Counted from the stretch's first letter, positions 1 to 59,934 are shown. The stretch is DNA of 64,000 nt from Bacteroidia bacterium (GCA_025062295.1 JANXAJ010000002.1:39967-103966); one strand, 5' to 3'. Numbers and translations: made by a program. Notes: generated by a model from the letters alone, not told the origin.

Positions 1-1116
1 AACTGTCCGATAGTCTAAAAAATCTCCTTCTATAGCTACTAAACCACGGTCAGGTATAATAAAGGCAAGGCCTGCGGACACTCGGTATGGGTAGGTAAAT
101 CTGTACTCAAACTGGAAAGGCTCCTCATACGAAGCGATCCCTACCCGTCCATCATCCACTCGAAATTCCATGTCAGCGGTATATTCATCTGTAATGCGGA
201 GGCGTGATCCTGTGAGAAAGCTGAGCCCAAACCGAAAGTATTCTACAGGCTCCACCAAGACACCGACAGAAAGCCCGACACCACTGCCGGAAGAAGAGTA
301 CTTCTCCCGTAATACGACCTCATCAGCAGGTGAAGTTTGATTTTGCCCATTGTACCGATTCTCTTGATCAATTTCTCGGAACCGATAGAGATTGGTATAA
401 CGGAGGCTGCGAATGAGAAGTGATGCACCAAAGAAGATTGTATTCTGATAGCAGAATCCTGCGCCTATTCCCCATGTATGGAGATGGCCACGCTCTTGTC
501 GAGAGATATCTTGAAGCACTCCTCCCTGAAAAAAAGCACCCCGATAGCGCCATGGATTGACCGAGATATAATCTATCACTCCCCAACTTGAGGGTGAGCC
601 GCTCGGATTCTGCACAAAGGTGTTGTAAGCCAACTGAGGGATCCCAAACAGAAGGCTATCTGGGATTCCCTCTGCTTGCTCAGCGATTGCTTGAGTAAGA
701 GAATTCCTGAAGTTGAAGCCCCGAGCTCGTGTATTCTGGGTAAAAAAGCCTTCCTGATTATAACCAAACCCAAAATTCCATTGAGTAATTTTTTTTCCTC
801 CTTTAGCATGAAGTATGAGGGCAAACTGACTCAGGCTGAGGTGAGTGCGGCTTTCTGAGCTTTTATCTATGTAAGTGGTAGAGGCAATAGGGAGGGAAAG
901 CGCTGGTGAGACCCACACTCCTCCTCTTACAAAGATCCCCAGTGCAGCAGGATTTTGGACAAGGTTAGCTGGATCGCCCCCTAAAGCAGTGAAAGCTCCC
1001 CCCATTGCAATTGCTCGGGCAGAACCTTGGGGTAGGCTTTGACTCCATCGCTCCGCATCTAAATCAGTTTGTCCTAAAAGGAAACCAAAGCCTATTATCC
1101 CCCATACCTGTTTCAT
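1..1116 (-). CDS. FadL/OmpP1-like outer-membrane transport protein (3' end truncated by window edge)
   Basis: Not in ORF track. Manual translation from ATG at 1116 gives MKQVWGIIGFGFLLGQTDLDAERWSQSLPQGSARAIAMGGAFTALGGDPANLVQNPAALG; signal peptide plus GxARxxAMGGAxxAxxxD...NPA motif of the family. Full-length frame not checked codon by codon. Confidence 0.75.
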   Translation of the reverse strand, partial: MKQVWGIIGFGFLLGQTDLDAERWSQSLPQGSARAIAMGGAFTALGGDPANLVQNPAALGIFVRGGVWVSPALSLPIASTTYIDKSSESRTHLSLSQFALILHAKGGKKITQWNFGFGYNQEGFFTQNTRARGFNFRNSLTQAIAEQAEGIPDSLLFGIPQLAYNTFVQNPSGSPSSWGVIDYISVNPWRYRGAFFQGGVLQDISRQERGHLHTWGIGAGFCYQNTIFFGASLLIRSLRYTNLYRFREIDQENRYNGQNQTSPADEVVLREKYSSSGSGVGLSVGVLVEPVEYFRFGLSFLTGSRLRITDEYTADMEFRVDDGRVGIASYEEPFQFEYRFTYPYRVSAGLAFIIPDRGLVAIEGDFLDYRTV

Positions 1117-1121
1117 CCCTT

Positions 1122-1129
1122 CAAAGTTA
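1122..1129 (-). promoter_or_regulatory. Bacteroidota -7 promoter box TAACTTTG
   Basis: Exact TAnnTTTG, 5 nt before the ATG at 1116. Confidence 0.65.
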
Positions 1130-1156
1130 CCTGTTTTTGATGTATCTTCCCCGAAA

Positions 1157-2740
1157 ATGAAGCGGTGCGCAGCCCTTTTGATTGGAGTGATGCTACTCCT
1201 TCTGAGTTGGCAGGACCCTCTCTACCGTCTCGGACGCAATATAGAAGTGTATGGGCGAGTTCTTCAGGAACTTGCTCAGAACTATGTAGATGTGCCTGAC
1301 TTAGATCGCCTCACAGCGCGAGCCATAGAATCCATGCTGAATGATCTGGATCCTTATACCAATTTTTACAGTGCGATTGATGTTACTCAGGCGCAATTAG
1401 AGCAGAGCGGTCAATATGCGGGGGTCGGGCTGGTTTTGCAGCCGCTAGAGGGACGAGTGATTTGCCGACGAATCCTTCCAGGCAGTCCGGCAGAAAAAGC
1501 AGGCATCCAACCTGGCGACCTCCTGATAGAAGTGGAAAAGAAACCCGTGAGCGATCTCTCTTTAGAGCAAATCCAGAAGCTTCTGCGAGGAATGCCGAAA
1601 ACTACGGTGCAGGTTAAGATTCTTCACCCCGCTAATGGGCAATTTCAAGAGCTTCAGTTAGTAAGAGCTGACTTAGAAAATGAAGCTGTCCCCTATAGCG
1701 CCCTCCTGCCAGGACAAATTGGGTATATTGCTCTGACCCAGTTTACTCGGGGCTGTTCAGAAGCGGTGCGACAGCACCTGATTCAACTCAAGACCCAAGC
1801 CCCCCTCAAAGGGCTTATTTTAGACCTGAGAGGAAATCCTGGAGGGCTCCTGAATGAAGCACTACAAATCTTAAACTTCTTCCTGCCGAAGGGGGAGCTC
1901 CTTTTAGAGACTCGAGGACGCATGGCGGAAGCCAACCAAAAATATTATGCTCAACTTCATCCCCTTGAGCCCACGCTTCCTCTCGTCGTGCTGATTGATG
2001 AGCACAGTGCTAGTGCTTCTGAGATTGTGGCTGGAACGCTCCAAGATTTGGATCGAGCCGTGATCATCGGGCGACGCTCTTTCGGCAAGGGACTAGTACA
2101 GATTGTACGTCCCTTAGTGGAAAATACTCAGATGAAAATAACTGTTTCCCGTTACTATACGCCTTCTGGTCGCAGCATTCAACTAAGCCCCCAATCCCTT
2201 CAAGGTAATTCTACATTTCGAACCCGTAGCGGTCGTCCTCTTCGCAGTGGTAGTGGTATTTCCCCGGATCTTGAGGTTCAAACTTATCTGCTCTCCCGAG
2301 AACGGGAACGCATAGAGCCCTACTTTTTCTTTTTCCTGGCTCAACACCGCGATAAGATTCCTCGAGACTCAGCCACTCTGACTGTAGAACTTCCCTCATT
2401 GACGCAAGTTCAAGCCCTGTTAGATTCCCTTCGCAAGTATCCAGCCGCCTACAGAGATGAAGCGGAAGAGACATTAGAGGAGCTGCGAGCTAAACTCTCT
2501 GATACTCCTACCCTCCGACAAAGGCTTAAAGAGCTGGAGGAGGCAATAGTGAACGAGCATTTTGAAAGACTTCGGCAAAGGGGGGAAGCTTTACAAGTGC
2601 TGATTGGCTCCTTGCGCGCCTATCATGGACTTGGTTTGAGAGGTGAATATAGCTTCATTGTGGCCCGAGATCCGGCGGTTCGTCAGGCTCGGGAGCTATT
2701 GACTGATCTGCCACGCTACGAGCGTCTTTTGCGACCTTGA
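1157..2740 (+). CDS. Carboxy-terminal processing protease (S41, PDZ domain)
   Basis: LDPYT, PDZ (GSPAEKAGIQPGD), LILDLRGNPGG, SASASEIVAG, SFGKGLVQ, YYTPSGRSIQ motifs. Confidence 0.92.
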   Translation: MKRCAALLIGVMLLLLSWQDPLYRLGRNIEVYGRVLQELAQNYVDVPDLDRLTARAIESMLNDLDPYTNFYSAIDVTQAQLEQSGQYAGVGLVLQPLEGRVICRRILPGSPAEKAGIQPGDLLIEVEKKPVSDLSLEQIQKLLRGMPKTTVQVKILHPANGQFQELQLVRADLENEAVPYSALLPGQIGYIALTQFTRGCSEAVRQHLIQLKTQAPLKGLILDLRGNPGGLLNEALQILNFFLPKGELLLETRGRMAEANQKYYAQLHPLEPTLPLVVLIDEHSASASEIVAGTLQDLDRAVIIGRRSFGKGLVQIVRPLVENTQMKITVSRYYTPSGRSIQLSPQSLQGNSTFRTRSGRPLRSGSGISPDLEVQTYLLSRERERIEPYFFFFLAQHRDKIPRDSATLTVELPSLTQVQALLDSLRKYPAAYRDEAEETLEELRAKLSDTPTLRQRLKELEEAIVNEHFERLRQRGEALQVLIGSLRAYHGLGLRGEYSFIVARDPAVRQARELLTDLPRYERLLRP

Positions 2741-3257: not shown

Positions 3258-4726
3258 ACTATACGCCTCAGACAGACAGGCGCCGAACAAGGCTTATCGC
3301 AATACTTCACAAAAGGCCATAAAATTCCTGCTCCTAGACCCAGTTCATACCTTTGATCTACTATTCCGCAATCCACATATAGACAGGGACAATCTCGAAG
3401 AAGCAAAGGAAAATACCCTTCCCAGTCGCCCAAACATAGGTCTATTCGCCTTCCCTTGAGGATGTAGGCAATGCTTCCCCCAATAATGCAACTGCGAGGA
3501 GGGAGACTATCGTAGGCTTGGCGAACCCTCTCTGCATAAGTGTAAGAGAGATGAGGAATCTCCAGACTCCAACGGAAGTGCTGATAAGTATTGCGAAGCT
3601 GCCATACCACCCATATCCCAGCTATGCTCACTAAGAGAGAGGAAGGGAGGGTACGCCAAAGGCGCTCCGCTGCATACAGCAGTATCGGTAGAAGAGTCAG
3701 GACAAAGTGCCGAGTATCCACAATCCCCACCCGCCCCTTAATCATGCTCCATGCATAGAGTCCTCCTTGAGTCAAAAAGAGCAGCCATAAGAGCTTGTCT
3801 CGCTTTTGTTCAGCCAAGGAAAAGGAAGGTCGGCCCCATTTCCAAAGAGCCGCTACAGTCAAAAGCCCTACAAGGAAAGCAAACCGAAGAAAAGGCACCT
3901 CTTGCCATAGGCGCCAGAAAAAATCAGGGGGTACAGGCATACCCCGCATGCTAAGCCCGCTCTCTTGAGCAGGATGACTGAGTGCATTCCATAGAAAATA
4001 TCCTCCTGCCCAGAGACCCTGAAAAGCCGCAATCACAAGCCATCTAAGCCCTTCTCTCCAATTTCTACAAAGCCCCTGCCACAGCCCCCATAGCCCCAGA
4101 GCTATCCCAACAGCTAAACCGCTATATCTAACAAGGAAGAGAAGAGGTAGAAGAAATCCTATCCCTACCATCCACCACCCCTTCTCATCTCTGTAAAAAC
4201 GCTCAAACGACCCTATCGTCAGAAGGAAAAACGGGATGAATAAATTCTCTGAGAGGGGGAAAGCTACATTCCACGTGTAGTTCGGAGGGTAAATGAAAAG
4301 AAAGAGCCAATCTGCTCGACTCTTGAAGAAGAAGAGCATGATTAGATAGCTCAGGATATAGAGTCCTACATTCAACCAGCGGCTAATGTAGAAGGGTTCA
4401 ATGCCTGTAAGCCAAGAAGAGAAAGCTATGAGGGCGGGGTAGCCTAAGGGCCACTCAGACATCCAGCCATAGGGCAAAGGTTCAAAGAGGGATGGCATTC
4501 GCAGACCTTCACCATGTAGAAGACTGCGGGCAGCACCTAAATAAGCGGTACAATCGGCTTGCGCTCGCCGAAGTCCATATGGCTCCATAAGAGCTAATGC
4601 ATCCCATGAGACAATCCCCATTTGAAAGAGGAGACAGCCTCGAACGACCCACCTCACCCAAGGGAGTGGAGGAGCTCCCACTTCCCTCCGCTCAAAAGCC
4701 TTCGCAAAGAAGGATCTCCAACTCAC
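3215..4726 (-). CDS. Polytopic membrane protein, probable GT-C (PMT/ArnT-like) glycosyltransferase
   Basis: Many TM segments; DxxxY..A..L..GxG, WPLGYPALIA, LSENLF, LFLVRYSG motifs; Cys-rich C-terminus; GTG at 4726 chosen because it lies 7 nt after TACTTTTG (4734-4741). Confidence 0.6.
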   Translation of the reverse strand: MSWRSFFAKAFERREVGAPPLPWVRWVVRGCLLFQMGIVSWDALALMEPYGLRRAQADCTAYLGAARSLLHGEGLRMPSLFEPLPYGWMSEWPLGYPALIAFSSWLTGIEPFYISRWLNVGLYILSYLIMLFFFKSRADWLFLFIYPPNYTWNVAFPLSENLFIPFFLLTIGSFERFYRDEKGWWMVGIGFLLPLLFLVRYSGLAVGIALGLWGLWQGLCRNWREGLRWLVIAAFQGLWAGGYFLWNALSHPAQESGLSMRGMPVPPDFFWRLWQEVPFLRFAFLVGLLTVAALWKWGRPSFSLAEQKRDKLLWLLFLTQGGLYAWSMIKGRVGIVDTRHFVLTLLPILLYAAERLWRTLPSSLLVSIAGIWVVWQLRNTYQHFRWSLEIPHLSYTYAERVRQAYDSLPPRSCIIGGSIAYILKGRRIDLCLGDWEGYFPLLLRDCPCLYVDCGIVDQRYELGLGAGILWPFVKYCDKPCSAPVCLRRIVCASSDPKSSDASP

Positions 4727-4824
4727 AGGCAAGCAAAAGTAAAGTAGAACTCGCTCTCCTAAATCTCAACGCCTGCAAAAGATAAATAAAGAAAGAGAGG
4801 ATGACCCTGTATTTGTCTCTCCCT

Positions 4825-6197: not shown

Positions 6198-6205
6198 TAC
6201 CTTTG
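6198..6205 (+). promoter_or_regulatory. -7 promoter box TACCTTTG
   Basis: Exact TAnnTTTG 8 nt before ATG 6214, inside a 22-nt divergent intergenic gap. Confidence 0.6.
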
Positions 6206-6213
6206 AGGCAAAT

Positions 6214-7188
6214 ATGCGTATTCTTCTTACAGGAGCCGCCGGTTTTATTGGAAGTTTTACAGCCCAAAGGCTTCTTCAGGAAGGCTACGAAGTGATTGGA
6301 ATAGATAACCTCAATAGCTACTATCATCCCTCCCTCAAAAAGCATCGCCTCAGCTGGCTCATATCCTCTCCCAATTTCCAGTTCCATGCCCTTGATCTGT
6401 CCGATTGGAATAGCATGGCAAGCCTGTTTGAATTTGCGGCCCCCATAGATGCGGTTATCAACCTTGCGGCACAGCCAGGCGTTCGCTCCAGCCTTGAGCA
6501 ACCTTACCCCTATTATCAGGCTAACTCTACGGGCAACTTTCACCTTTTAGAACTTATGCGACGCCATGGCATAAAGCAGTATGTGTTGGCTTCTACCTCC
6601 TCTCTATATGCAGGTGCATCCCTCCCATTCTCTGAAGATTGCATTGTAGATACGCCTATCTCACCCTATGCTGCTTCTAAGCGGGCAGCAGAGATTCTTG
6701 CCTACACTTATCACTATCAGTATGGGATTGATGTGGCGGTTCTCCGATATTTCACAGTGTATGGACCCGCAGGACGCCCAGATATGGGTATTTTTCGTTT
6801 CATCGAATGGATTTATCGAGAAGAGCCCCTCCATCTTTATGGAGATGGGACACAATCGCGAGATTTCACCTATGTTGAGGATGTCGCTGAAGCTACATTG
6901 GCAGCCTTACAAGTGAAGGGCTATGAAATTTTCAACATTGGAGGGGGAAAGCCTCCTTCTTCCCTCTTAGAGGTGATTCATCACATTCAGAAGCGCTTGA
7001 GAAAGGAGGCAAAAATCATCTACCATCCACCCTCTCGCGCAGATCTTCATCATACGCAAGCAGATATTCGCAAGGCAGAGAGTCTTTTAGGCTGGAGACC
7101 AAAAGTAGAATTTTGGACAGGTTTAGACCGCACTATAGAGTGGCATCTGGAAAATAGGGAGCTTTTAGATGGCTTGCCTCTATCCTAA
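6214..7188 (+). CDS. NAD-dependent epimerase (UDP-glucuronate 4-epimerase-like)
   Basis: TGAAGFIG, NLAAQPGVR, YAASK, RYFTVYGPxGRPDM; start trimmed to MRILLTG. Confidence 0.9.
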   Translation: MRILLTGAAGFIGSFTAQRLLQEGYEVIGIDNLNSYYHPSLKKHRLSWLISSPNFQFHALDLSDWNSMASLFEFAAPIDAVINLAAQPGVRSSLEQPYPYYQANSTGNFHLLELMRRHGIKQYVLASTSSLYAGASLPFSEDCIVDTPISPYAASKRAAEILAYTYHYQYGIDVAVLRYFTVYGPAGRPDMGIFRFIEWIYREEPLHLYGDGTQSRDFTYVEDVAEATLAALQVKGYEIFNIGGGKPPSSLLEVIHHIQKRLRKEAKIIYHPPSRADLHHTQADIRKAESLLGWRPKVEFWTGLDRTIEWHLENRELLDGLPLS

Positions 7189-9211: not shown

Positions 9212-9219
9212 TACCTTTG
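9212..9219 (+). promoter_or_regulatory. -7 promoter box TACCTTTG
   Basis: Exact TAnnTTTG 4 nt before acnA ATG. Confidence 0.7.
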
Positions 9220-9223
9220 CCTT

Positions 9224-11929
9224 ATGACGCAGTGGAAAAAGTCCTTTGGAGAGGGCTTAAGTTATATTGACTTGCCAGCTGCTGCTCAAGCATATGGCAT
9301 AGATTTGACTGCGCTCCCTTATAGTCTCCGAATCCTTTTAGAAAATGCTCTCAGACACTTAGACGGCTTCAAGGTTACAGAAGCTCACCTAATGCCTTTC
9401 CGTCAATGGAGTGGGCGACCGAGTCCAGAGGAAGAGATTGCTTTTATTCCTGCTCGGGTGCTAATGCAGGATTTTACAGGGGTACCCGCTGCTGTTGACT
9501 TGGCTTCCTTGCGGGAGGCAGTCTCTGCAAATGGAGGAGACCCTCGCTCTATTAACCCTCTTGTTCCTGTAGACCTCGTGATAGACCACTCGGTTCAGGT
9601 TGACTCTTTTGGGAATGCCTCGGCCCTTCAGCGCAATATTGAGAAGGAATATCAGCAAAATCAAGAACGCTACGTATTTCTCAAGTGGGTTCAGCAAGCA
9701 TTTGACAACTTTCGGATAGTTCCGCCAGGGATGGGGATTGTGCATCAGGTGAATTTGGAGTATTTGGCCCAGGTAATAACGGAGCGAGGTGGGTGGGTAT
9801 TTCCAGACACGCTTGTGGGGACAGACTCTCACACGCCGATGGTGAACGGCATAGGCGTGGTCGGATGGGGGGTGGGAGGCATTGAAGCAGAAGCAGCCAT
9901 GTTAGGGCAGCCGTTTTACTTTCCCTGTCCAGAGGTTATTGGGCTGCGGCTGGAGGGATGCCTCCGACCTGGGGTCACAGCGACAGACCTTGTCCTCACA
10001 ATTACAGAGCTGCTGCGAAAAGTAGGAGTCGTAGATAAATTTGTGGAAATCTTCGGACCCGGTCTTTCCACCTTGACCGTTCCCGACCGAGCTACTATCT
10101 CAAACATGTCTCCTGAATTTGGATGTACAGTAACATACTTTCCGATTGATGAGCAGACTCTGACTTACTTGCGACTCACGGGACGCAAGCAGAGTAAGAT
10201 TGAGGTTATTCGGCGGTATGCTGAGCTGAACCATCTCTGGTGGAAAGCGGAGCAGATCCCGATTTACACGAAGGTCATCTCTCTGGACTTGGGTTCGGTA
10301 GAACCTGTAGTTGCGGGCCCTCGCCGTCCCCAGGATAGAATTCCCCTGAGAGAGGTGAAGCAGATTGTTCAGCAAAACATACAAGGCACCTATCAGAAAA
10401 AGGGACTTTCGGTGAGTGCTCAGCCTCTGACCTTCCTAAAAGAAGCCCCCCCACCAAATGGATATGCCCATTTGTATGCGGGAGATGCGGACTACTTTCT
10501 CTCGGATGGGAGCGTCGTGATCGCTGCTATTACGAGCTGCACTAATACCTCTAATCCATCGGTGATGCTGGCAGCTGGACTCGTGGCGAAGAAGGCTGTA
10601 TCCATGGGACTCACTCCCAAGCCCTGGGTCAAAACGACTCTTGCACCCGGTTCTCGAGTCGTGACACGGTACTTAGAGAAAGCGGGACTCCTTCCTTACT
10701 TAGAAGCGCTTCGGTTTCATGTGGCGGGATATGGCTGTACAACTTGCATCGGCAATAGCGGGACGCTTCCACCCGCTGTCTCCCGAGGAATTCAAGAGAA
10801 AAACCTCGTCGTAGCGGCTGTCCTTTCAGGCAATAGAAACTTTGAGGCCCGCATTCATCCACAGGTCAGAATGAACTTCCTTGCCTCTCCTCCTCTTGTG
10901 GTGGCTTATGCCCTTGCAGGAAGAGTAGATATTGACCTGGAGAAAGAACCGATTGGCTACGACCCCGATGGCCAGCCAGTATATTTGCGAGATATCTGGT
11001 TTTCCCAAGAAGAGGTTGATCAGCTTTTGAAATCCGTGATTGATGAGGAGGACTACAAACTGAATTACGCTCATATTTTTGAAGGAGAGGCTGCATGGCA
11101 ATCCCTTAAGGCCCCCTCTGGACATCTCTACGCTTGGGAGGAGTCATCAACATATATTCGTCGGGCGCCTTTCTTTGATGGGCTGACAGCGACTGTGCCT
11201 CCCCTCAAGGACATACTCAATGCGCGAGTATTGCTCGTTTTAGGTGACTCCGTAACAACCGATCACATTTCCCCAGCTGGCTCCATCCCCTCTCAATCCC
11301 CTGCAGGTCAATATTTGATTGAAAAAGGGGTAGATGTGAAAGATTTCAACTCTTACGGGGCTCGGCGAGGCAATCATGAAGTGATGATGCGAGGGACTTT
11401 TGCAAATGTGCGCTTACGCAACAAACTGGTGGAGCGAGAGGGCGGCTGGACCCTTCATCATCCAACGGGTGAGCTTTTGCCTGTCTATGAGGCAGCCATG
11501 CGTTATCAAGCCGAAGGCACGCCACTCTTAGTGATTGCAGGCAAAGAATATGGAAGCGGTTCCTCCCGAGATTGGGCAGCTAAAGGTCCAGCCCTTCTGG
11601 GTATCAAGGCTGTGATAGCAGAGAGCTACGAGCGCATTCACCGAAGCAACCTCGTAGGAATGGGCATCCTCCCCCTACAATTCCTCCCAGGGGAAAGTGC
11701 TGAAGTTTTAGGTCTTACAGGAAAAGAGATATACACGATCCACGGCATAAAGGAGGGACTCACTCCGCTCAAGCGTCTCTCGGTGAGCACAATAGACCCA
11801 ACCACAGGCTCAAGCAGGCATTTTGAAGTGATAGCCCTTCTGCGCTCAGAGATAGAGGTGGCTTATTACCGACATGGGGGCGTTCTAAACTATGTTCTTC
11901 GGACGCAGTTCCTTGGAGGATCTGCCTGA
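9224..11929 (+). CDS. acnA: Aconitate hydratase A
   Basis: RVLMQDFTGVP, GTDSHT, AITSCTNTSNP, GCTTCIGNSG, TTDHISPAG, GSGSSRDWAAKG. Confidence 0.97.
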   Translation: MTQWKKSFGEGLSYIDLPAAAQAYGIDLTALPYSLRILLENALRHLDGFKVTEAHLMPFRQWSGRPSPEEEIAFIPARVLMQDFTGVPAAVDLASLREAVSANGGDPRSINPLVPVDLVIDHSVQVDSFGNASALQRNIEKEYQQNQERYVFLKWVQQAFDNFRIVPPGMGIVHQVNLEYLAQVITERGGWVFPDTLVGTDSHTPMVNGIGVVGWGVGGIEAEAAMLGQPFYFPCPEVIGLRLEGCLRPGVTATDLVLTITELLRKVGVVDKFVEIFGPGLSTLTVPDRATISNMSPEFGCTVTYFPIDEQTLTYLRLTGRKQSKIEVIRRYAELNHLWWKAEQIPIYTKVISLDLGSVEPVVAGPRRPQDRIPLREVKQIVQQNIQGTYQKKGLSVSAQPLTFLKEAPPPNGYAHLYAGDADYFLSDGSVVIAAITSCTNTSNPSVMLAAGLVAKKAVSMGLTPKPWVKTTLAPGSRVVTRYLEKAGLLPYLEALRFHVAGYGCTTCIGNSGTLPPAVSRGIQEKNLVVAAVLSGNRNFEARIHPQVRMNFLASPPLVVAYALAGRVDIDLEKEPIGYDPDGQPVYLRDIWFSQEEVDQLLKSVIDEEDYKLNYAHIFEGEAAWQSLKAPSGHLYAWEESSTYIRRAPFFDGLTATVPPLKDILNARVLLVLGDSVTTDHISPAGSIPSQSPAGQYLIEKGVDVKDFNSYGARRGNHEVMMRGTFANVRLRNKLVEREGGWTLHHPTGELLPVYEAAMRYQAEGTPLLVIAGKEYGSGSSRDWAAKGPALLGIKAVIAESYERIHRSNLVGMGILPLQFLPGESAEVLGLTGKEIYTIHGIKEGLTPLKRLSVSTIDPTTGSSRHFEVIALLRSEIEVAYYRHGGVLNYVLRTQFLGGSA

Positions 11930-14111: not shown

Positions 14112-14119
14112 TATATTTG
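14112..14119 (+). promoter_or_regulatory. -7 promoter box TATATTTG
   Basis: Exact TAnnTTTG 6 nt before GTG 14126. Confidence 0.65.
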
Positions 14120-14125
14120 CTTTAG

Positions 14126-15085
14126 GTGCGTACCTTCCTGCGGTGGCTAGGGGGTGTGTCATGGGTGCGGCGCTTCTATGAGGGAGAGGCAGTCATTTTG
14201 GCCCTTCATCGGGTGAGTAGAACCCCCTCCCTCATGGGCTCAAGCTTCTGTCTTCACCCCGAAAGGCTTCAACACCTCCTCCTCCATCTCATCAAGAAGG
14301 GATATACTTTCATCTCCTTAGAAGCTCTTCTTTATGCGCTTCAAGCAGATCATCCTCTTCATAAGGCTATCGTCCTCACTATTGACGATGGATACGCTGA
14401 CTTTCTCGAGGAGGCCTACCCTATTCTAAAACAGCTAAAAATACCCTTCACAATGTATGTAGTAAGCAGTTTTGCAAAGAAGGAACTTTTTCCGTGGTGG
14501 GTAGGATTAGACCACCTCATTCAGGAGCGCCATAAGTTTATCTTAGAAGGATACTCTTACGAAGCTAAGGATTGGAAGAAGAAAAAGCGACTTTTCTCCC
14601 ACCTTCAGCGGAGATATTTGAGAGAATCTCCTCATAAAGCATGTGGAGCCATAGAATCTGCCTTTCGAAAGGCAGGCCTTCCTTCCGAAAAGTTGTACGA
14701 AGTGTGTTTAGATACTTATGCCTTGCACTCCCTATCTCAGGACTCTCTCTGTAGGATCGGGGCTCATACTGTATCTCATCCGTGGCTTCCTTCTTTAGAC
14801 TGGGAGAAATGGGAGAGAGAACTCTCTCATAGCAAGGCATTCTTAGAGGCGGTTCTTCAGCGGCTTGTAGTTGATTTTGCTTACCCCTATGGAGGGCCTC
14901 AGGACATTCCGACGGGCTTAGAGCGCCTGCTTAGCGAAATCGGCTACCGTAGTGCGGTAACGCTGCGCTGGAGTCCAGTGTATCGGGCTCATCGGTCTTC
15001 ACCTTATAGGCTTCCTCGTCGAGTAGTGAATGCTAGCTTAGCAGCAGAAGACTTTCATCGCCCTCGCTGGCGGCGGATGGCTTAG
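14126..15085 (+). CDS. Polysaccharide deacetylase (CE4/NodB-like)
   Basis: LHRV, LTIDDGY, GAHTVSHP, FAYPYG, LPR motifs. Confidence 0.88.
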   Translation: MRTFLRWLGGVSWVRRFYEGEAVILALHRVSRTPSLMGSSFCLHPERLQHLLLHLIKKGYTFISLEALLYALQADHPLHKAIVLTIDDGYADFLEEAYPILKQLKIPFTMYVVSSFAKKELFPWWVGLDHLIQERHKFILEGYSYEAKDWKKKKRLFSHLQRRYLRESPHKACGAIESAFRKAGLPSEKLYEVCLDTYALHSLSQDSLCRIGAHTVSHPWLPSLDWEKWERELSHSKAFLEAVLQRLVVDFAYPYGGPQDIPTGLERLLSEIGYRSAVTLRWSPVYRAHRSSPYRLPRRVVNASLAAEDFHRPRWRRMA

Positions 15086-17489: not shown

Positions 17490-17492
17490 GGT

Positions 17493-17500
17493 CAAAGCTA
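17493..17500 (-). promoter_or_regulatory. -7 promoter box TAGCTTTG
   Basis: Exact TAnnTTTG 3 nt before mqnE ATG. Confidence 0.6.
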
Positions 17501-17553: not shown

Positions 17554-17561
17554 TACCTTTG
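17554..17561 (+). promoter_or_regulatory. -7 promoter box TACCTTTG
   Basis: Exact TAnnTTTG 4 nt before ATG 17566. Confidence 0.7.
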
Positions 17562-17565
17562 AGGC

Positions 17566-19475: not shown

Positions 19476-19483
19476 TACATTTG
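19476..19483 (+). promoter_or_regulatory. -7 promoter box TACATTTG
   Basis: Exact TAnnTTTG 5 nt before ATG 19489. Confidence 0.65.
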
Positions 19484-19488
19484 CCTAG

Positions 19489-23785: not shown

Positions 23786-23816
23786 ACTGAAGGCAAAGGT
23801 ATGAAAGTTCATTTGA

Positions 23817-35346: not shown

Positions 35347-35354
35347 TACCTTTG
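35347..35354 (+). promoter_or_regulatory. -7 promoter box TACCTTTG
   Basis: Exact TAnnTTTG 8 nt before ATG 35363. Confidence 0.65.
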
Positions 35355-35362
35355 CATTGAAT

Positions 35363-46603: not shown

Positions 46604-47905
46604 TTATTGACTTGGAATTGTTTCTCTAAGAGAGAAGGCTTCCCGCAGCCGCTCCACCTGATCCAGCCTCTCCCATGGGAAGGTCTCGGCGACTTGTTGA
46701 TGATGAATATAGTGCTCTTGGGGTCCCTCAGGGGTCTGCTCAATGTGGAGGGTAACCTGATCATAAGTAAGCTGCTGCGGCTCTCGCCCTAAGTGTCCAT
46801 AGACGGCTGTCGGACGATAGATAGGAGCCCGCAAGTTGAGGTGTTCTATGATAGCAGCGGGGCGCAGATCAAAAAGCTCCAGCAAGCGCTGCGCAATTTC
46901 ACTATCAGAAAGAGGCACATGAGCAGTACCATAGGTATTGACATAGAGAGCGAGCGGCTTCGCAATTCCAATCGCATACGCTACTTGAATCAGCACTTCA
47001 TCAGCGATCCCAGCTGCTACGAGATTCTTTGCAATGTAGCGGGTCATATAAGCCGCACTTCGGTCAACTTTTGTCGGGTCTTTGCCAGAAAAGGCCCCAC
47101 CGCCATGAGGAGCTCGCCCTCCGTAAGTATCTACAATAATCTTGCGTCCCGTCAGCCCCGTATCGGCGTGAGGACCTCCTAAGACAAATCTACCTGTTGG
47201 ATTGACATACAGGCGAGTTCGCTCATCCAGCATTTCCGCTGGCAAGACGCGAGGAAGGAGAATGGTGCGTACATCCTCTTCTATCTTTTTGTGCATGGTT
47301 CGCCAGTCCTCGGCGAACTCCTCATGCTGAGTGGAGAGTACAATCGTATGAATGCGCAGGGGACGCCCATCATCCAAATACTCAATCGTAACTTGACATT
47401 TAGCATCTGGGCGTAAGTAAGGCATAAGATGCTTTTCATTTTTACGAATATGAGCCAGCTCGCGCAAGATTCGGTGAGCATAGGCAATAGGCATCGGCAT
47501 GTATTCTTCGGTCTCTCTACAAGCGTAGCCAAACATCATCCCTTGATCTCCAGCTCCTAAATCCAAATCAAGCCCTTGCCCGCGATTGACCCCCAACGCA
47601 ATGTCAGGCGACTGACGATGAATTGTAACAATAACACCGCAGCTTTCAGCATCAAAGCGAAGCTCCGATCGGTTATACCCAATTTCTCGGATAGTTTGCC
47701 GAGCAATGCCTTCATAATCCACCCGCGCTGTCGTAGTGATCTCACCTGCTAGCACCACTAGGCCAGTGGTGACGAGAGTTTCACATGCCACTCGTCCAAA
47801 AGGATCCTGCGCTAAAATCGCATCCAGGATAGCATCAGAGATCTGGTCCGCCACCTTGTCAGGGTGTCCTTCGGCTACTGATTCTGAAGTGAAGAGATAC
47901 GACAC
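46604..47905 (-). CDS. metK: S-adenosylmethionine synthetase
   Basis: FTSESVxEGHPDK, GAGDQG, NPTGRFVxGGP, [20 protein letters not shown]; GTG start at 47905. Confidence 0.97.
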
Positions 47906-47942
47906 GAGCGCAAATATGCACAAAAACCAGCACTTTTATAGA

Positions 47943-48584: not shown

Positions 48585-48602
48585 ACTCTTAGGTTTTAGC
48601 TT

Positions 48603-49256
48603 ATGCTAAGCAAGATAGAGAAAAGGCGTCGGTATTACGCTCACCCTGTTGCCCTTTATGGGGAAAAAGTGCCTTCGCCAGCTGCGTGGAGAGAAACTCT
48701 GGGCTTTAGTCCTGATGCCCCTTTCTTCTTGGACTTGGGATGCGGCAAAGGAGAATTTGCAGTCTATTTAGCTCAGCGTTATCCTCATGCGCTTGTTGTT
48801 GGTTTGGATCGACGGGCGGATAGATTAGCCACAGGCTGTCGGATAGCTTCCGAGCGAGGAGTTCATAACGTCCGTTTCTGGCATGCAGATGCACTTCTTT
48901 TAGAGACCCATCTTGGGCTGGCTGAAGTCTCCACTCTCTGGCTCAACTACCCAGACCCCTATCCGAAGCGGCGTCACGAAAAACATCGCCTTCTTCATCC
49001 GCGTTTTCTTCGTCTCTATCAGCGGATTCTGATGCGAGGGGGAAGCCTCTTTCTCCGTACAGATGAGCCGAATCTATACTTTTACAGCTTAGAGCAGCTT
49101 AGAGAGGCTGGGTGGGAGATTGTATGGGCCACACCTTGCCTTCTGCCTGGGGAAGTAGAGGAGGAGGCAGCATATTTTGAGACTGAATTTTACCGCAAAC
49201 GAGGGGGTACTATCCACTATATTCATGCTCGCTGGAGAGGCTACTCAAGAGAATGA
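48603..49256 (+). CDS. trmB: tRNA (guanine-N7)-methyltransferase
   Basis: LDLGCGKGEF, NYPDPxPKxRHxKxRL, RTD, TEF. Confidence 0.92.
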   Translation: MLSKIEKRRRYYAHPVALYGEKVPSPAAWRETLGFSPDAPFFLDLGCGKGEFAVYLAQRYPHALVVGLDRRADRLATGCRIASERGVHNVRFWHADALLLETHLGLAEVSTLWLNYPDPYPKRRHEKHRLLHPRFLRLYQRILMRGGSLFLRTDEPNLYFYSLEQLREAGWEIVWATPCLLPGEVEEEAAYFETEFYRKRGGTIHYIHARWRGYSRE

Positions 49257-49316: not shown

Positions 49317-49350
49317 AACCTCCCCATTACGCCTCCCCCTAATAGAGGTG

Positions 49351-49440
49351 CGGAGAGGGGGGGATTCGAACCCCCGACTCCGATTTTGTCGGAGTACACG
49401 ATTTCCAGTCGTGCCCGTTCGACCACTCCGGCACCTCTCC
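49351..49440 (-). tRNA. tRNA-Ser (GGA)
   Basis: GGAGAGG/CCTCTCC acceptor, CACGA-CT GGA AA-TCGTG, long variable arm, G discriminator, no encoded CCA. Confidence 0.95.
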
Positions 49441-49442
49441 AG

Positions 49443-49515
49443 TGGAGAGTAGCGGACTCGAACCGCTGACCTCCAGAGTGCGATTCTGGCGCTCTACCAC
49501 CTGAGCTAACTCCCC
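49443..49515 (-). tRNA. tRNA-Ala (CGC)
   Basis: GGGGAGT/ACTCTCC with G3-U70, CCAGA-AT CGC AC-TCTGG, no encoded CCA. Confidence 0.93.
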
Positions 49516-49518
49516 TCG

Positions 49519-49591
49519 TGGAGGGTAGCGGACTCGAACCGCTGGCCTCCAGCATGCCATGCTGGCGCTCTACCACCTGAGCTAACCCCCC
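49519..49591 (-). tRNA. tRNA-Ala (GGC)
   Basis: GGGGGGT/ACCCTCC with G3-U70, CCAGC-AT GGC AT-GCTGG, no encoded CCA. Confidence 0.95.
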
Positions 49592-49599
49592 AGCAGTAG

Positions 49600-49607
49600 C
49601 AAATATA
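49600..49607 (-). promoter_or_regulatory. -7 promoter box TATATTTG of tRNA operon
   Basis: Exact TAnnTTTG 8 nt before tRNA-Ala(GGC). Confidence 0.7.
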
Positions 49608-49615
49608 CAACGGAT

Positions 49616-50584
49616 TCACCAAACCCTCGGCCCTGGCAGAAGGTATCCTTGCACATAATCCCTCACCCCTTCTTCTAATGAAAAAAATGAATCCCCGTAA
49701 CCTGCTGCCCGCAGCTTACCCATCTCTGCTTGAGTAAAATACTGATAACCTGAACGAATCGCCTCTGGCATCTCTATGAATTCTACGCATAGCTCCCGTC
49801 CCATCGCAGCGAAAAGAGCAGCAGCTAAGTCTAAAAAGCTCCGAGCTGTCCCTGTACCCAGATTATAAATCCCAGAAGGCATTGAACTCCTGAAAAAATG
49901 AAAAAGAACCTTAACCACGTCCTTGACATAAATAAAATCCCTCTTTTGCTCCCCATCTCCATAGTCTGGGCGATAAGACCGAAAGAGTTTTATTCTGCCC
50001 TCGTCAGTTATCTGATTGTACCCATGCCAGACTACACTCGCCATCCTTCCCTTGTGATACTCATTCGGACCATAAACATTGAAGAACTTGAAGCCAGCCC
50101 ATCTGGGAGGCGTCTTATCTTGGCTTATCACCCACAAGTCAAATGTGTGTTTAGAGCGGGCGTAGGGATTGAGGGGCTGAAGGTGAGCAAGAATACGCTC
50201 ATCATCTGAAAATCCATGCCTTCCATCCCCATAAGTCGCTGCGCTGGATGCATAAAAGAAAGGTATCTGTGCTTGAGTAGCGAAATCCCACAAGCGCTGC
50301 GAGTAAGAGAGATTCAACTCCATGAAAACCTCTTCAGATTTGAGGGTGGTGTCGGTACGTGCTCCTAAATGAAAAATTGCCTGAATAGAGCTCTTATAAG
50401 CCTTGAGCCAATCAAAAAGGTGATGTCGCTCCACAAGATAGCGATAGCGCTTGGTTTGCCAATTTTGTTTCTTACTCAGGTGAGAAAAATCATCCACTAA
50501 TACTATGTCCGTCATACCTTGCTCATTTAGATAGGCAGCAAGGGCACTACCGATGAAGCCAGCCGCACCTGTGAGAACTATCAC
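49616..50584 (-). CDS. rfaD: ADP-glyceromanno-heptose 6-epimerase
   Basis: TGAAGFIGS, FHLGARTDT, YASSAATYG, PLNPYxxSK, FFNVYGPNEYHKGRMASV, YQYFTQA; GTG 50584 is 4 nt after TACCTTTG (50589-50596). Confidence 0.93.
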   Translation of the reverse strand: MIVLTGAAGFIGSALAAYLNEQGMTDIVLVDDFSHLSKKQNWQTKRYRYLVERHHLFDWLKAYKSSIQAIFHLGARTDTTLKSEEVFMELNLSYSQRLWDFATQAQIPFFYASSAATYGDGRHGFSDDERILAHLQPLNPYARSKHTFDLWVISQDKTPPRWAGFKFFNVYGPNEYHKGRMASVVWHGYNQITDEGRIKLFRSYRPDYGDGEQKRDFIYVKDVVKVLFHFFRSSMPSGIYNLGTGTARSFLDLAAALFAAMGRELCVEFIEMPEAIRSGYQYFTQAEMGKLRAAGYGDSFFSLEEGVRDYVQGYLLPGPRVW

Positions 50585-50725
50585 ACCGCAAAGGTAGAGG
50601 GCATGCGTTTCCTTCAGAGTGAGCCTTGCTTGCAGTAGGATCATCTACATAGCGGAGGGAGTTTTACATCTTCTTAGAGTTGGGGCAACCTATACTTTAC
50701 TTCATGCCTCCACTTTTGACCCGAT

Positions 50726-52147
50726 ATGAAGACCGCATGGGTTCATAGGGGAATGTTAGCGCTTATAATAAGCGCCAGCTTTATTGCCTGTAAGCGAGAC
50801 CGAGATGATGAGGAGCCAGCACCGACTCCACCCGCAGGGGAGCGCATAGATACCTTGCGCGGGGAGCTTACTACGGAGCTCCGATTAGATTCGACTAAGA
50901 AGTACCTCTTGGTCGGCACCTTTATCGTTCGCGAAGGGGGCATTCTACGAATCCCAGCAGGAACCGTTATCTTCGGCGACAGGCGGACGAAGGGTACGCT
51001 GATTATTGACCGAGGAGGAAAAATCTTCGCCCAGGGAACGCCAGACAAACCTATCATCTTCACCTCTCGCTTCGGACCAGGTGAAAGAGACCGGGGAGAC
51101 TGGGGAGGAGTAATCATTTTAGGAAAAGCTCGGGTCAATCAAGCAAATGTGAATATAGAAGGAGTAAACCCTCTGATGCCATATGGAGGAACCGACGATG
51201 AAGATAACTCGGGGATTTTCCGATATGTACGGATAGAATATAGCGGGGTAGCTCTCTCTCCTAATAATGAAATCAACAGTCTGACCCTCGGAGGCGTCGG
51301 TCGGGGCACCCAGATAGATCATGTCCAAGTTTCCTATGGAGGGGATGATGGGTTTGAGTGGTTTGGAGGTACAGTAGATGCGAAGTATCTGGTATCTTTT
51401 GCCACTTGGGACGATGATTTAGATGTAGATTTTGGCTGGTCAGGACGAGTTCAGTTTGCGCTTGTGATTCGGGATCCATTTGGAGCAGACCAGTCAGGTT
51501 CAAATGCTTTTGAATGTGATAATGATGCAAGCGGCTCTGCTGCCACACCCTTCACCTCAGGTGTCTTTTCCAATGTTACGGTCATAGGTCCGATTTGGGC
51601 CCGAGGGTTTCGTCCCAGCGCGACCTATCAGAACGCGATACACTTGCGGCGAAATGCCGCTGTCTCTATATTCAACTCAGTAATTGGAGGTTTCCCCACG
51701 GGACTCCGAATCGATGGCGGAATAAATAGCACCCTCGGCCACTATCTGGATGGAAGGGCCTTCTTGCGTTACAATGTATTATACATAGACTCCGCTAATG
51801 TTCGAGCTCTCTTCCGTGGCGATTCTTCTGGTACCTCAATAGCGGATAGAGTGCGCGACCTGTGGAACGACTCTCAAAACGGCAATCAACAACAGGGTGC
51901 AGACTCTTTGGCTTTCCTATTCGGCTATTCCTCTACGAATCCTCTCCCATTCTTCAGGTATGTGGAGGGACAAGCCAATCCTTCCCTTACTTTGCCCGGG
52001 GGATCGCCACTGGCAACAGGAGCCGACTTTAGCCATCCTAAGCTTGATAACTTCTTTGAGCGAGTGAGCTTTAGGGGAGCTCTACGAGTGGACGGCGACT
52101 GGACCGATGGCTGGTGTAGCTTCAGACCCCAAGATATCCAATACTGA
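50726..52147 (+). CDS. Surface lipoprotein with beta-helix fold (widespread family, function unclear)
   Basis: Lipobox FIAC plus acidic export-like stretch KRDRDDEE; IxAxGTxxxPIIFTS, GDWGGxxILG, YGGxxxxDNSG, EINSLTLGGVG, DDGFEWFGGTV. Confidence 0.8.
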   Translation: MKTAWVHRGMLALIISASFIACKRDRDDEEPAPTPPAGERIDTLRGELTTELRLDSTKKYLLVGTFIVREGGILRIPAGTVIFGDRRTKGTLIIDRGGKIFAQGTPDKPIIFTSRFGPGERDRGDWGGVIILGKARVNQANVNIEGVNPLMPYGGTDDEDNSGIFRYVRIEYSGVALSPNNEINSLTLGGVGRGTQIDHVQVSYGGDDGFEWFGGTVDAKYLVSFATWDDDLDVDFGWSGRVQFALVIRDPFGADQSGSNAFECDNDASGSAATPFTSGVFSNVTVIGPIWARGFRPSATYQNAIHLRRNAAVSIFNSVIGGFPTGLRIDGGINSTLGHYLDGRAFLRYNVLYIDSANVRALFRGDSSGTSIADRVRDLWNDSQNGNQQQGADSLAFLFGYSSTNPLPFFRYVEGQANPSLTLPGGSPLATGADFSHPKLDNFFERVSFRGALRVDGDWTDGWCSFRPQDIQY

Positions 52148-57300: not shown

Positions 57301-57638
57301 GCGATGGAGATGCGAGTGCCAATGTCTGATTTGCGAATCCCAAGCTCTTTTTCTACCGCCAGTTCTACAGGAAGTCCATGGGTGTCCCATCCTGCCCGTC
57401 GAGGCACTTGGTATCCCCGCATAGTTTTGTAGCGGCATACAAGGTCCTTCAAGGTGCGAGCAAAGACGTGGTGGATGCCAGGTTTGCCATTAGCGGAGGG
57501 GGGACCTTCATAGAACACAAAGAGGGGTCTGCCCTGCCGCCGCTGAACAGAGACTTCAAAAGTTTTTTCTTGTCGCCACCGCTTCAGTATCTCTTTCTCC
57601 CACTTCGGCAGCTGGAGCGGACCCAAACTCTTCCACAT
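54372..57638 (-). CDS. ileS: Isoleucine--tRNA ligase (type 2)
   Basis: EGPPSANGxPGIHH, GWDTHGLP, WTTTPWTLP, YPHCWR, WFDSG, EGVDQTRGWFY, KMSKR. Confidence 0.97.
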   Translation of the reverse strand: MWKSLGPLQLPKWEKEILKRWRQEKTFEVSVQRRQGRPLFVFYEGPPSANGKPGIHHVFARTLKDLVCRYKTMRGYQVPRRAGWDTHGLPVELAVEKELGIRKSDIGTRISIADFNKACKEAVMRYKDAWDALTERMGYWIDLEHPYITFEPSYIESVWWLLKQFYDKGLLYRDYTIQPYSPAAGTALSQHELNLPGAYRRVRDPSITVQFPDQEQASLYYLAWTTTPWTLPSNAALAVNPEFIYVEVETFQPYTAERIRMILAEGALSRYFPAEELPFTPEAIDRRAGKVPYRVLHRFKGEALLQRRYVPLFRYVEPEGNPWRIIPADFVTLEEGTGIVHIAPTFGADDLKAARKHQIPPIVARDEHQQPLPLVDKEGRFISQVIDFAGRYVKNYTDDPNYKPVDEDIIQNLRERGLLFRRDTYEHNYPHCWRTDKPILYYPVEGWFIRTSLLREKLVELNRHIEWHPPTIGEGRFGNWLENVEDWNLSRSRFWGIPLPIWRTRDGRYERCIGSLEELKMEIEKARSAGLMDHNPLDQPTFDPHRPFVDEIVLVAPDGSPMYREPDVIDVWFDSGAMPYAHLHYPFEGREKFAHFFPADFIAEGVDQTRGWFYTLHVIAAALFDSVAYRHVLVNGLVLDKEGNKMSKRLGNVIEPTELMEKYGADPTRWYLVSQSAPWENVRFDESRLQEKVRTFFGTLHNAYEFFALYARIDGYVPQPLPPFTQLSLIDRWIISETEKLTQQVLQAYESYFPTQAARLIEEFVVEKLSNWYIRLNRRRFWKGEQDADKWAAFTILRRTLLRIAQLMAPIAPFYAEILWQHLGEGESVHLSDFPEPEENFRTPELEATMEKVRLLASLLHSLRKKSGIRVRQPLPQALVPASYRPWLEPLADLLLQELNLKTLTYLADHSEAVIYELRPNYRLLGPSLGARLPAFAEYLRGLSQREILDIIEKGSLTWEGETYSLEAIEIRARALSGWLHASEGGLTVALDTRLTPELEREGWARELIHHIQVARKGAGLEVTDRIQLRISLPSPYVEALRPYQELIQQETLALTLNWATIPPSIPTTMFLDGIPMEIHIESIYEHA

Positions 57639-57643
57639 CTCTA

Positions 57644-57659
57644 CAAAAGTACAAAACTA
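57644..57659 (-). promoter_or_regulatory. Tandem -7 boxes TAGTTTTG-TACTTTTG before ileS
   Basis: Two abutting exact TAnnTTTG; proximal one is 5 nt before ATG 57638. Confidence 0.65.
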
Positions 57660-58792: not shown

Positions 58793-59882
58793 AACGAAGG
58801 GTATTTTGGAGGGGGTGATTTTGCACGAGAGAGGTCAGATAGGCAATATCTATGCCCAATCGACGAAACTGAAAACCTGCACCGAGCGTCAAAAAGCGGC
58901 GATTCCCCTTCATTGGGTCCTCATAGAAGAAGCCGCCTCTCACCTTGAAAAGGCGATTATAGTCATATTCTGCTCCAATACTCCAGTAAATCTCCGAAAG
59001 CTCTTCTCGCCAGCCCCCTGGGGCATCCCCGAAGCTCCTAAACATGCCTTCTAAGAGAGCCACTTGTGCTGCTCCCCCAGCCGAGGGCACTAAGAGCTTG
59101 TTGAAGTCATTCGCTATCGTGAAGCGATTGAAATCATCAATCTGCAAAGTAAAAGAATAGCCCAGTCGCAGATTGGTCGGAATAAAGTCCCGCTGTCCCG
59201 AGGCTGTGTATGCCATTTTCGCTCCTATGTGCGAGATATGAGCACCCCAGCGAAAAGTCAAAGGAAGAGGCTGAGGTTTGACCTTGAGAGTCCAATCTTT
59301 CTGATAGTAGAAGCCGACATCCCCTGCGACAGAGCGTCCAGGCTGAGTGGTCAGGCCACCAACCGTCGTGGCCCCTGTCAAGTTACTCTGAATGTAGCGA
59401 AGGGCTACGCCAGCTGAGAGATTGCTTGCCAGAAGCCGACTATAACCAGCGGAGATAGCAAATTCATTTGCATCATACTCCCCTGTCTTGAGACCAGCAT
59501 TATCTGTAAATTCTATTTGCCCTAAGCTGAAAAAGGTCAGTGTCCCACCAATTGTTCCTGCTTTTTCACCAAGATGGGCATAGGCAGGCAGGTAGAAATG
59601 ATTAATGTCTCCGATGCCAAGGGCTCGAAGCCAAGGGGTGTAAGAGAAAGCTAGGCCCGCCCGACTCTCTGCCAGCGCCAGTGCCCCTACATTCCAGTGC
59701 ATACTATACATATTTGGGGGAAGTGCTACTCCTGTTTCAGCCATGCCGCCACTGCGCGCATCAGGACAAATCAGCAGAAAAGGTACGGCTGTCGTAATAG
59801 CCCGAATTTGACCCGCAGGATTGGACTGTGCCTGCCCAAAGGCTTGGGCTAAAAGCCCACTTATGACGAGTAGTCTTCTCAT
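58767..59882 (-). CDS. porV: Type IX secretion system outer-membrane shuttle PorV
   Basis: ITTAVPFLxIxPDARSGGM, SYTPWLR, FSLGxIxF, PTNLRLG, NKLLVP, KGNR, PLQNTLRF; start trimmed to MRRLL. Confidence 0.92.
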   Translation of the reverse strand: MRRLLVISGLLAQAFGQAQSNPAGQIRAITTAVPFLLICPDARSGGMAETGVALPPNMYSMHWNVGALALAESRAGLAFSYTPWLRALGIGDINHFYLPAYAHLGEKAGTIGGTLTFFSLGQIEFTDNAGLKTGEYDANEFAISAGYSRLLASNLSAGVALRYIQSNLTGATTVGGLTTQPGRSVAGDVGFYYQKDWTLKVKPQPLPLTFRWGAHISHIGAKMAYTASGQRDFIPTNLRLGYSFTLQIDDFNRFTIANDFNKLLVPSAGGAAQVALLEGMFRSFGDAPGGWREELSEIYWSIGAEYDYNRLFKVRGGFFYEDPMKGNRRFLTLGAGFQFRRLGIDIAYLTSLVQNHPLQNTLRFTLYILWQ

Positions 59883-59900
59883 GGAGCGAAAAGCCTCCCA

Positions 59901-59930
59901 CAAATGTAACGAGGTTCCTTCGTACTTTTG
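59901..59930. promoter_or_regulatory. Back-to-back -7 boxes for porV (TACATTTG, minus, 59901-59908) and tRNA-Ser (TACTTTTG, plus, 59923-59930)
   Basis: Two exact TAnnTTTG on opposite strands 14 nt apart. Confidence 0.7.
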
Positions 59931-59934
59931 CTAT

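Follow-up and report, generated by a model that had tools for sequence, protein, structure and literature searches.

In a 64,000-nt stretch of DNA from an uncultured Bacteroidia bacterium (GCA_025062295.1, JANXAJ010000002.1:39967-103966; called the window in the following) the octamer TAnnTTTG, the -7 promoter element of Bacteroidota, stands only a few nucleotides in front of many start codons. This raises the question where the mRNAs of this organism begin and how the ribosome finds their first cistrons. A sequence-only reading of the window had proposed that most first cistrons are carried on leaderless mRNAs or on mRNAs with leaders of 0-4 nt. The window, which is C22:39967-103966 of the 2.05 Mb genome G000 (74 contigs, 99 % complete), was therefore analyzed together with the rest of the genome and with related genomes. 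From the position of the box we infer that in this genome and its family most operon-leading mRNAs are very probably leaderless or nearly so. This reading builds on direct observations, namely the geometry and statistics of the box, its restriction to operon heads and stable RNA genes, the restriction of the adjoining codons to ATG and GTG, and its phylogenetic distribution.

Leaderless mRNAs were once suspected behind the missing Shine-Dalgarno (SD) sequences of Bacteroidota, and were rejected for the mapped species, where short leaders are reported for 4-13 % and the model species are given as 87-96 % leadered (PMC6847099, PMC7366714, PMC9723704). The leaders average 33 nt in Flavobacterium johnsoniae, with 87 % longer than 10 nt (PMC6847099), and the median 5' untranslated region is reported as 32 nt in Bacteroides thetaiotaomicron, with 3.7 % below 10 nt (PMC7366714), and as 24 nt in F. 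psychrophilum, with 5.5 % leaderless (PMC9723704). Zheng et al. described leaderless genes in one of 37 Bacteroidetes/Chlorobi genomes using a method that sees only Pribnow-like boxes (PMC3160421), and GeneMarkS-2 assigns 409 of 455 FCB-group genomes to its group B with a non-SD ribosome-binding site (RBS) (PMC6028130). In our literature searches no description of a Bacteroidota lineage dominated by leaderless mRNAs was found.

The TAnnTTTG box at gene starts

For the window each TAnnTTTG was paired by script with any ATG, GTG or TTG at most 12 nt away that opens a long frame, and the excess of boxes was assessed against 100 dinucleotide shuffles. The window contains 48 exact boxes, a number reached by none of the shuffles (mean 27.8, maximum 42). 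About 17 of these boxes adjoin a gene start and the remainder is close to the chance number. All 14 spacers of 3-8 nt given in the sequence-only reading for coding sequences (CDSs) were reproduced exactly, the boxes in front of three tRNA units were found at 4 nt (tRNA-Lys), 8 nt (tRNA-Ala) and 4 nt (tRNA-Ser) with tRNA 5' ends taken from ARAGORN, and each of the five proposed one-mismatch boxes sits at the spacer assigned to it (Table 1). Four of the 14 genes, those for the GT-C protein, the deacetylase, nuoJ and rfaD, start with GTG, on which that reading had been silent.

For the whole genome the bases between a box and an ATG (or GTG) that begins a frame of 100 codons or more were counted, a procedure that does not use gene calls. 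TAnnTTTG occurs 1472 times, against 490-1076 occurrences for each of five composition-matched scrambled or reversed control 8-mers. The numbers of ATG codons at spacers of 0 to 10 nt are 4, 1, 5, 21, 138, 75, 38, 41, 34, 18 and 11, with mostly 3-10 in the tail, giving a sharp mode at 4 nt, whereas the control 8-mers show 0-8 ATG per spacer and no peak at any spacer. When GTG is included, the spacers from 3 to 9 nt hold 26, 200, 95, 49, 46, 43 and 24 starts and those beyond about 11 each; by this histogram roughly 400 genes stand above background. Among the 161 TAnnTTTG-N4-ATG sites of the genome, 138 open at least 100 codons.

In a register test, boxes 3-9 nt before the start were compared with a control register of 33-39 nt in 1460 genes called by a self-trained periodic Markov model, with short and low-scoring genes omitted. 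Exact boxes were found before 415 genes in the first register and before 37 in the second, so that the box is indeed concentrated near starts rather than spread over intergenic DNA, and 265 of the 415 have a spacer of 4 or 5 nt. One-mismatch boxes precede 252 genes at 3-9 nt and 142 in the control register, indicating that many individual one-mismatch calls are due to chance. Their excess is modest, about +140 over a codon-periodic background, and is limited to spacers 4-6; the most strongly enriched variant carries T-to-C at the seventh position, as in TATATTCG (72 vs 29 background).

The spacing agrees with what has been published for this promoter element. In F. johnsoniae the -7 element spans T-12 to G-5 and probable promoters lie 4 or 5 nt from the transcription start site (TSS) (PMC6847099). 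With this distance, +1 would fall on the first base of the start codon when the spacer is 4 nt. At spacer 4 the start codons are 125 ATG, 55 GTG and 0 TTG, and at spacers 3-9 they are 328 ATG, 101 GTG and 5 TTG. Of the spacer-4 genes, 66 % have a pyrimidine directly before the start codon, which fits the pyrimidine/purine initiation site that is preferred for transcription start.

We propose that the -7 element is placed such that RNA polymerase would start on the A or G with which the start codon begins, or 1-5 nt ahead of it, and that the resulting leaderless mRNAs would be translated by direct recognition of the 5'-terminal AUG or GUG, without SD pairing or an A-rich leader. Downstream cistrons would be reached mainly by coupling where stop and start codons overlap. 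Leaderless mRNAs would also arise by a second route, the processing of co-transcribed tRNAs, behind which several genes lie at 0-3 nt.

Promoter function of the box and competing explanations

An exact box at 3-9 nt precedes 227 of the 488 genes with a divergent upstream neighbour and 58 of the 132 genes behind a same-strand gap of 16-40 nt, and is nearly absent from overlapping same-strand, i.e. operon-internal, genes (13/333). Stable RNA genes carry the box as well. Of 34 tRNA/tmRNA unit heads, 30 have an exact box 4-14 nt upstream (mode 8) and four do not, while 12 further tRNAs are downstream members of clusters. The model start of the signal recognition particle (SRP) RNA lies 1 nt after a box, and in two congeners (G009 and G011) two tandem TACCTTTG boxes are found within 260 nt before the 16S rRNA. 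As the box precedes tRNA, tmRNA, SRP RNA and rRNA genes, it should act in transcription. The mode of 8 nt for tRNAs as compared to 4 nt for CDSs fits a short leader as RNase P substrate in tRNAs and selection for zero leader in mRNAs.

The tandem boxes before 16S lie in an extended GTCGTACCTTTGCG context, which recurs before ileS in close relatives and may mark strong promoters. At tRNA-Lys (29628) and tRNA-Ser (59935) of the window, and likewise at a tRNA-Asn on C9, the box is only 4 nt upstream, and transcription of these tRNAs would proceed without a 5' leader.

The claim that most first cistrons have no leader or one of 0-4 nt held up approximately. Among divergent heads about 57 % carry an exact box, or one with a single mismatch, at 3-9 nt after control subtraction, from which we infer leaderlessness. 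Of 328 box-less first cistrons, only 61 have an exact box 10-92 nt upstream. Several observations weigh against this reading. About 43 % of the divergent heads, control-corrected, have neither an exact nor a one-mismatch box at 3-9 nt. A query of sequencing runs with window 9100-19099 listed none of RNA. The gene set consists of crude self-trained calls, and the starts of box-less genes are unreliable. In 150 of the 415 exact-box genes the spacer is 3 or 6-9 nt, and the genes with spacers of 6-9 nt, about a third of the boxed genes, probably have leaders of 1-5 nt rather than none. At spacers 7 and 8 purines are enriched 5-6 nt after the box, which is the canonical TSS position, so that these mRNAs probably carry leaders of 2-4 nt. 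Fixed positions between -45 and -1, counted from the box, carry no information for a -33 element in 418 aligned sites; in F. johnsoniae this element is described as weak and barely visible (PMC6847099). The RNase P RNA gene is present with only a two-mismatch box, 3 nt upstream, and was uninformative as a calibrator of the TSS.

Three other explanations were weighed against leaderless initiation. The boxes could be real promoters of ordinary leadered mRNAs whose translation begins at an in-frame codon further downstream. For four window genes (GT-C, mqnE, nuoJ and OMP-34116) the motif had contributed to the choice of the start, 13 residues of mqnE precede its model start, and in a comparison of 434 genes the boxed codon lies downstream of the start with the maximum coding score in 80 cases and upstream of it in 96. 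However, the boxed codon is itself the maximum-score start in 258 of these 434 genes, and it is the first possible in-frame start in 230. An unused ATG or GTG would not sit fixed at 4 nt (200 vs about 11 background), nor would the exclusion of TTG be expected. When N-termini were checked against NCBIfam profiles, the profile start and the box-adjacent codon were no more than about 2 residues apart for E2, nuoJ, rfaD, ileS and the epimerase, and no more than about 9 for acnA. Finally, the in-frame coding score of 413 genes is -0.105 per nt over the 60 nt that precede the box and rises to +0.039 over the 60 nt that follow the start. Downstream translation starts are very improbable as an explanation.

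Hardly more credible, and if anything slightly less so, is the idea that the motif acts in the RNA, recruiting ribosomes or stabilizing the message, while transcription begins further upstream. As Bacteroidota do without SD pairing, another upstream signal in the mRNA is conceivable, and the missing fixed -33 element would suit it. However, the motif is the published -7 promoter consensus, it precedes RNAs that are not translated, and it is nearly absent before internal genes, which also need ribosome recruitment; the same-strand gaps of 16-40 nt, moreover, leave no space for another promoter. An artefact of composition or gene calling, i.e. chance proximity of a common intergenic motif, has a negligible probability: although chance would account for about 28 of the 48 boxes in the window and many boxes lie inside genes, the control 8-mers, the two registers and the reversed pattern (10 vs 161 occurrences) all speak against it, and the spacer histograms are independent of gene calls.

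Translation signals and genes abutting tRNAs

A spacer of 3-9 nt leaves no room for a ribosome-binding motif. SD-like 4-mers were found upstream of 17 of the 415 boxed genes, below the in-gene control (202/1452), which bears out the absence of SD sequences before boxed starts. Internal genes (29 of 303) and divergent genes lacking a box (9 of 151) show no enrichment of such 4-mers either. An A-rich tract before internal genes was not seen. Same-strand neighbours overlap by 4 nt in 140 pairs and by 1 nt in 26 pairs, which makes translational coupling the likely route to downstream cistrons.

Bacteroidota ribosomes hide their anti-SD. Since the 16S rRNA is absent from the G000 assembly, it was taken from two congeners, and in both the CCUCC core is kept, ruling out loss of the anti-SD as the cause of the trait. 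The ribosomal proteins bS21 and bS1, which the sequence-only reading had singled out for inspection together with the anti-SD, are present, as is IF3, and no obvious gene loss was seen. The translation machinery, as judged from its genes, looks like ordinary Bacteroidota machinery. The bS21 gene rpsU (C21:27598-27759) itself has a TATATTTG box, a 6-nt spacer and an ATG, and an SD-like sequence is absent upstream. The rpsU gene of F. johnsoniae is controlled via an SD, a circuit that would then be missing here.

At the last box of Table 1 the tRNA-Ser(TGA) is followed directly, with a 0-nt spacer, by the ATG of the fructose-bisphosphatase gene fbp (60025), and residue 1 of the protein aligns with model position 3-4. 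In the genome, 6 of 46 tRNA/tmRNA genes have, 0-3 nt downstream, an ATG or GTG that begins a frame of 80 codons or more, where by a rough estimate less than one is expected by chance. Among these genes, bL25 lies 1 nt behind a tRNA-Arg and its residue 1 falls on profile position 1, while Prs starts with GTG 3 nt behind a tRNA-Gln and its residue 7 falls on profile position 7. The fbp, bL25 and Prs genes thus have no space after the tRNA for a separate promoter. Somewhat further away, Dxr starts 9 nt after a tRNA-Val and its N-terminus agrees with the family model. The order of box, 4-5 nt, tRNA-Ser, 0-2 nt and fbp ATG is kept in 15 of 16 loci of the family; the remaining locus has its box 11 nt from the tRNA-Ser, and the junction of 0-2 nt is kept in all 16, while the flanking codons have diverged to 75-82 % identity.

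With a CDS 0-3 nt after the 3' end of a tRNA, tRNA processing would leave an mRNA starting at or next to the start codon. That 3' processing of the tRNA frees an mRNA beginning at its start codon is the simplest reading suggested by the fbp junction, and the tRNA junctions would offer independent support that a 5'-terminal start codon suffices in this lineage. The arrangement resembles the tRNA punctuation of mitochondria, where mRNAs are freed by excision of flanking tRNAs. Unlike in mitochondria, the junctions here are few and belong to a free-living bacterium. We know of no bacterial counterpart of mitochondrial tRNA punctuation, and none was found in a literature search by titles and abstracts.

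Some neighbouring features of the window were noted in addition. The gene for a C25-type peptidase (ATG 29723) starts 20 nt after tRNA-Lys without a box of its own. mqnE and the E2 gene are divergent (17487-17568) with a gap of 76 nt and two outward boxes 53 nt apart, forming a minimal back-to-back promoter pair. Upstream of ileS (57644-57659, minus strand) two boxes abut, TAGTTTTG and then TACTTTTG, of which only the proximal one is at leaderless distance. A PorV-like gene (58767-59903, minus strand) is headed by an exact TACATTTG box at 59901-59908 with no ATG or GTG within 12 nt, and the Markov model placed its start at a TTG inside this box.

Table 1. Boxes, spacers and start codons of the genes and tRNA units discussed (window positions unless a contig is given)
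Feature	Position (strand)	Box	Spacer (nt)	Start	Remark
fadL-like gene	1114..1129 (-)	TAACTTTG (1122-1129)	5	ATG 1116	
503-aa membrane protein	4724..4741 (-)	TACTTTTG	7	GTG 4726	GT-C in the sequence-only reading; no NCBIfam match
NAD-dependent epimerase	6198..6216 (+)	TACCTTTG	8	ATG 6214	residue 1-2 = profile position 1
acnA	9212..9226 (+)	TACCTTTG	4	ATG 9224	TIGR01341 residue 13 = position 4
polysaccharide deacetylase	14112..14128 (+)	TATATTTG	6	GTG 14126	
mqnE	17487..17500 (-)	TAGCTTTG	3	ATG 17489	TIGR03700 residue 15 = position 2
E2 acyltransferase	17554..17568 (+)	TACCTTTG	4	ATG 17566	residue 1 = profile position 2
1111-aa metalloprotease lipoprotein (M43)	19476..19491 (+)	TACATTTG	5	ATG 19489	
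256-aa outer-membrane protein (porin)	23783..23801 (-)	TACCTTTG	8	ATG 23785	
TonB-dependent receptor	26223..26238 (-)	TATATTCG	5	ATG 26225	one-mismatch box
200-aa protein	26850..26865 (-)	TTACTTTG	5	ATG 26852	one-mismatch box; cytochrome c in the sequence-only reading
nuoJ	29587..29601 (-)	TATGTTTG	4	GTG 29589	NF005167 residue 1 = position 1
tRNA-Lys(CTT), 29628-29702	29616..29702 (+)	TACTTTTG	4		
229-aa protein (OMP)	34114..34127 (-)	TATCTTTG	3	ATG 34116	
1906-aa giant protein	35347..35365 (+)	TACCTTTG	8	ATG 35363	
433-aa protein	47903..47918 (-)	CATATTTG	5	GTG 47905	one-mismatch box; metK in the sequence-only reading
217-aa protein	48590..48605 (+)	TAGGTTTT	5	ATG 48603	one-mismatch box; trmB in the sequence-only reading
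tRNA-Ala/tRNA-Ala/tRNA-Ser unit (49591 down to 49350)	49350..49607 (-)	TATATTTG (49600-49607)	8		
rfaD (ADP-heptose 6-epimerase)	50582..50596 (-)	TACCTTTG	4	GTG 50584	residue 1-2 = profile position 1
473-aa protein	50711..50728 (+)	CACTTTTG	7	ATG 50726	one-mismatch box; lipoprotein in the sequence-only reading
ileS	57636..57651 (-)	TACTTTTG	5	ATG 57638	residue 9 = profile position 7
tRNA-Ser(TGA), 59935-60024, and class 1 fructose-bisphosphatase	59923..61026 (+)	TACTTTTG (59923-59930)	4	ATG 60025	spacer counted to the tRNA
tRNA-abutting genes (fbp, bL25, prs and three others at 0-3 nt; dxr at 9 nt)	window 59923-61026; C14:448-1090; C19:18882-19895; C33:60632-62372; C72:38858-39538; C73:28619-30399; C5:7607-8836				

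Distribution, known systems and implications

For the distribution of the trait TAnnTTTG-N4-ATG and a reversed-pattern control were counted per genome. The 161 occurrences in G000 have a reversed control of 10, and all 16 other genomes of the family, which belong to two genera, have 137-223 occurrences each with reversed controls of 2-23. In the single sampled genome of a sister family the pattern occurs 55 times vs 41 for the control, and in other Bacteroidia families mostly at 1-2 times the control. In none of 400 further genomes of the phylum does the density of G000 (78 per Mb) coincide with its 16-fold ratio. The densest of them, G137, reaches 58 per Mb at 3.9-fold over control, and family f60 of another class (e.g. 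G242, G258 and G366) shows 6-8-fold over control at about 20 per Mb; partial leaderless use may be more widespread in Bacteroidota. No 4-nt peak was detected in a small sample of 163 kb from G137 (4 matches vs about 16 expected at the density of G000) or in one of 94 kb from G017, of the sister family, which belongs to the same order (0 matches vs about 9 expected). Among the sampled genomes the trait belongs to one uncultured family of Bacteroidia.

Orthologues of ileS were compared at 45 of 80 fetched loci, leaving out truncated or lower-ranked ones. The four close relatives (73-78 % identity) all have the box near the same ATG, at 5, 5, 8 and 5 nt. The remaining 41 loci come from other Bacteroidota (47-51 % identity); in these the nearest box is 15-37 nt away in 24, 55-177 nt in 7 and 9 nt in one, with none within 200 nt in the remaining 9. 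The nearest named relatives by IleRS are Saprospiraceae and Chitinophagales metagenome-assembled genomes, at only about 50 % identity.

The sigma-ABfr promoters of Bacteroidota (-33 TTTG, -7 TAnnTTTG; B. fragilis, B. thetaiotaomicron, F. johnsoniae and F. psychrophilum) have the same -7 consensus and, like here, serve mRNA, tRNA and rRNA genes alike. The variable positions of the box prefer pyrimidines, matching the revised consensus TAHHTTTG (PMC6847099), and the DNA upstream of the boxes is not AT-rich. However, in the mapped species the box is reported well upstream of the start codon, whereas here the mode is 4 nt.

The group C genomes of GeneMarkS-2 (Actinobacteria, Deinococcus-Thermus) likewise place a box at a short, constant distance before the first gene and have no RBS there, and 25-50 % of their operons are predicted to be leaderless, compared to about 57 % of divergent heads with a box here (415 exact-box genes in 1460 calls). 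Their box, however, is given as a Pribnow box 6-8 nt before the start and they use an RBS for leadered and internal genes, in contrast to the Bacteroidota -7 element at 4 nt and the internal genes without SD found here (PMC6028130). The start codons at spacer 4 resemble those of the mapped leaderless mRNAs of P. acnes, with 68/29/3 % AUG/GUG/UUG (PMC3848588). Archaeal leaderless transcription (group D) shares the leaderless majority of operons and the fixed distance of promoter and start codon, but depends on a TATA box about 22-26 nt upstream and on another polymerase and other initiation factors. Leaderless architecture is thus known elsewhere; new here is that it would be built on the Bacteroidota -7 element, without SD back-up for internal genes.

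The combined claim, that a whole free-living Bacteroidia family uses the 5'-terminal start codon as its default initiation signal, as the first such lineage in the phylum, and has a second route by tRNA cleavage, is held tentatively and considered marginally less probable than its opposite. In practice the box predicts the start codon almost exactly in a third of the genes, and gene finders assuming the group B model (AT-rich RBS) may misplace starts in these genomes. The conserved tRNA-to-CDS junctions offer a testable case of leaderless mRNAs made by processing in a bacterium. A leaderless alternative would exist within the class, as the majority state of this family and with a sharp phylogenetic border, and at ileS the leader of about 15-37 nt of other Bacteroidota would be replaced by 5-8 nt. 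If the combined claim is true, the ribosomes and initiation factors of the family must be able to use AUG or GUG at a 5'-triphosphate end as well as at a processed one, and the family would be a natural system for studying how an SD-independent ancestor with leadered mRNAs gives rise to leaderless initiation.

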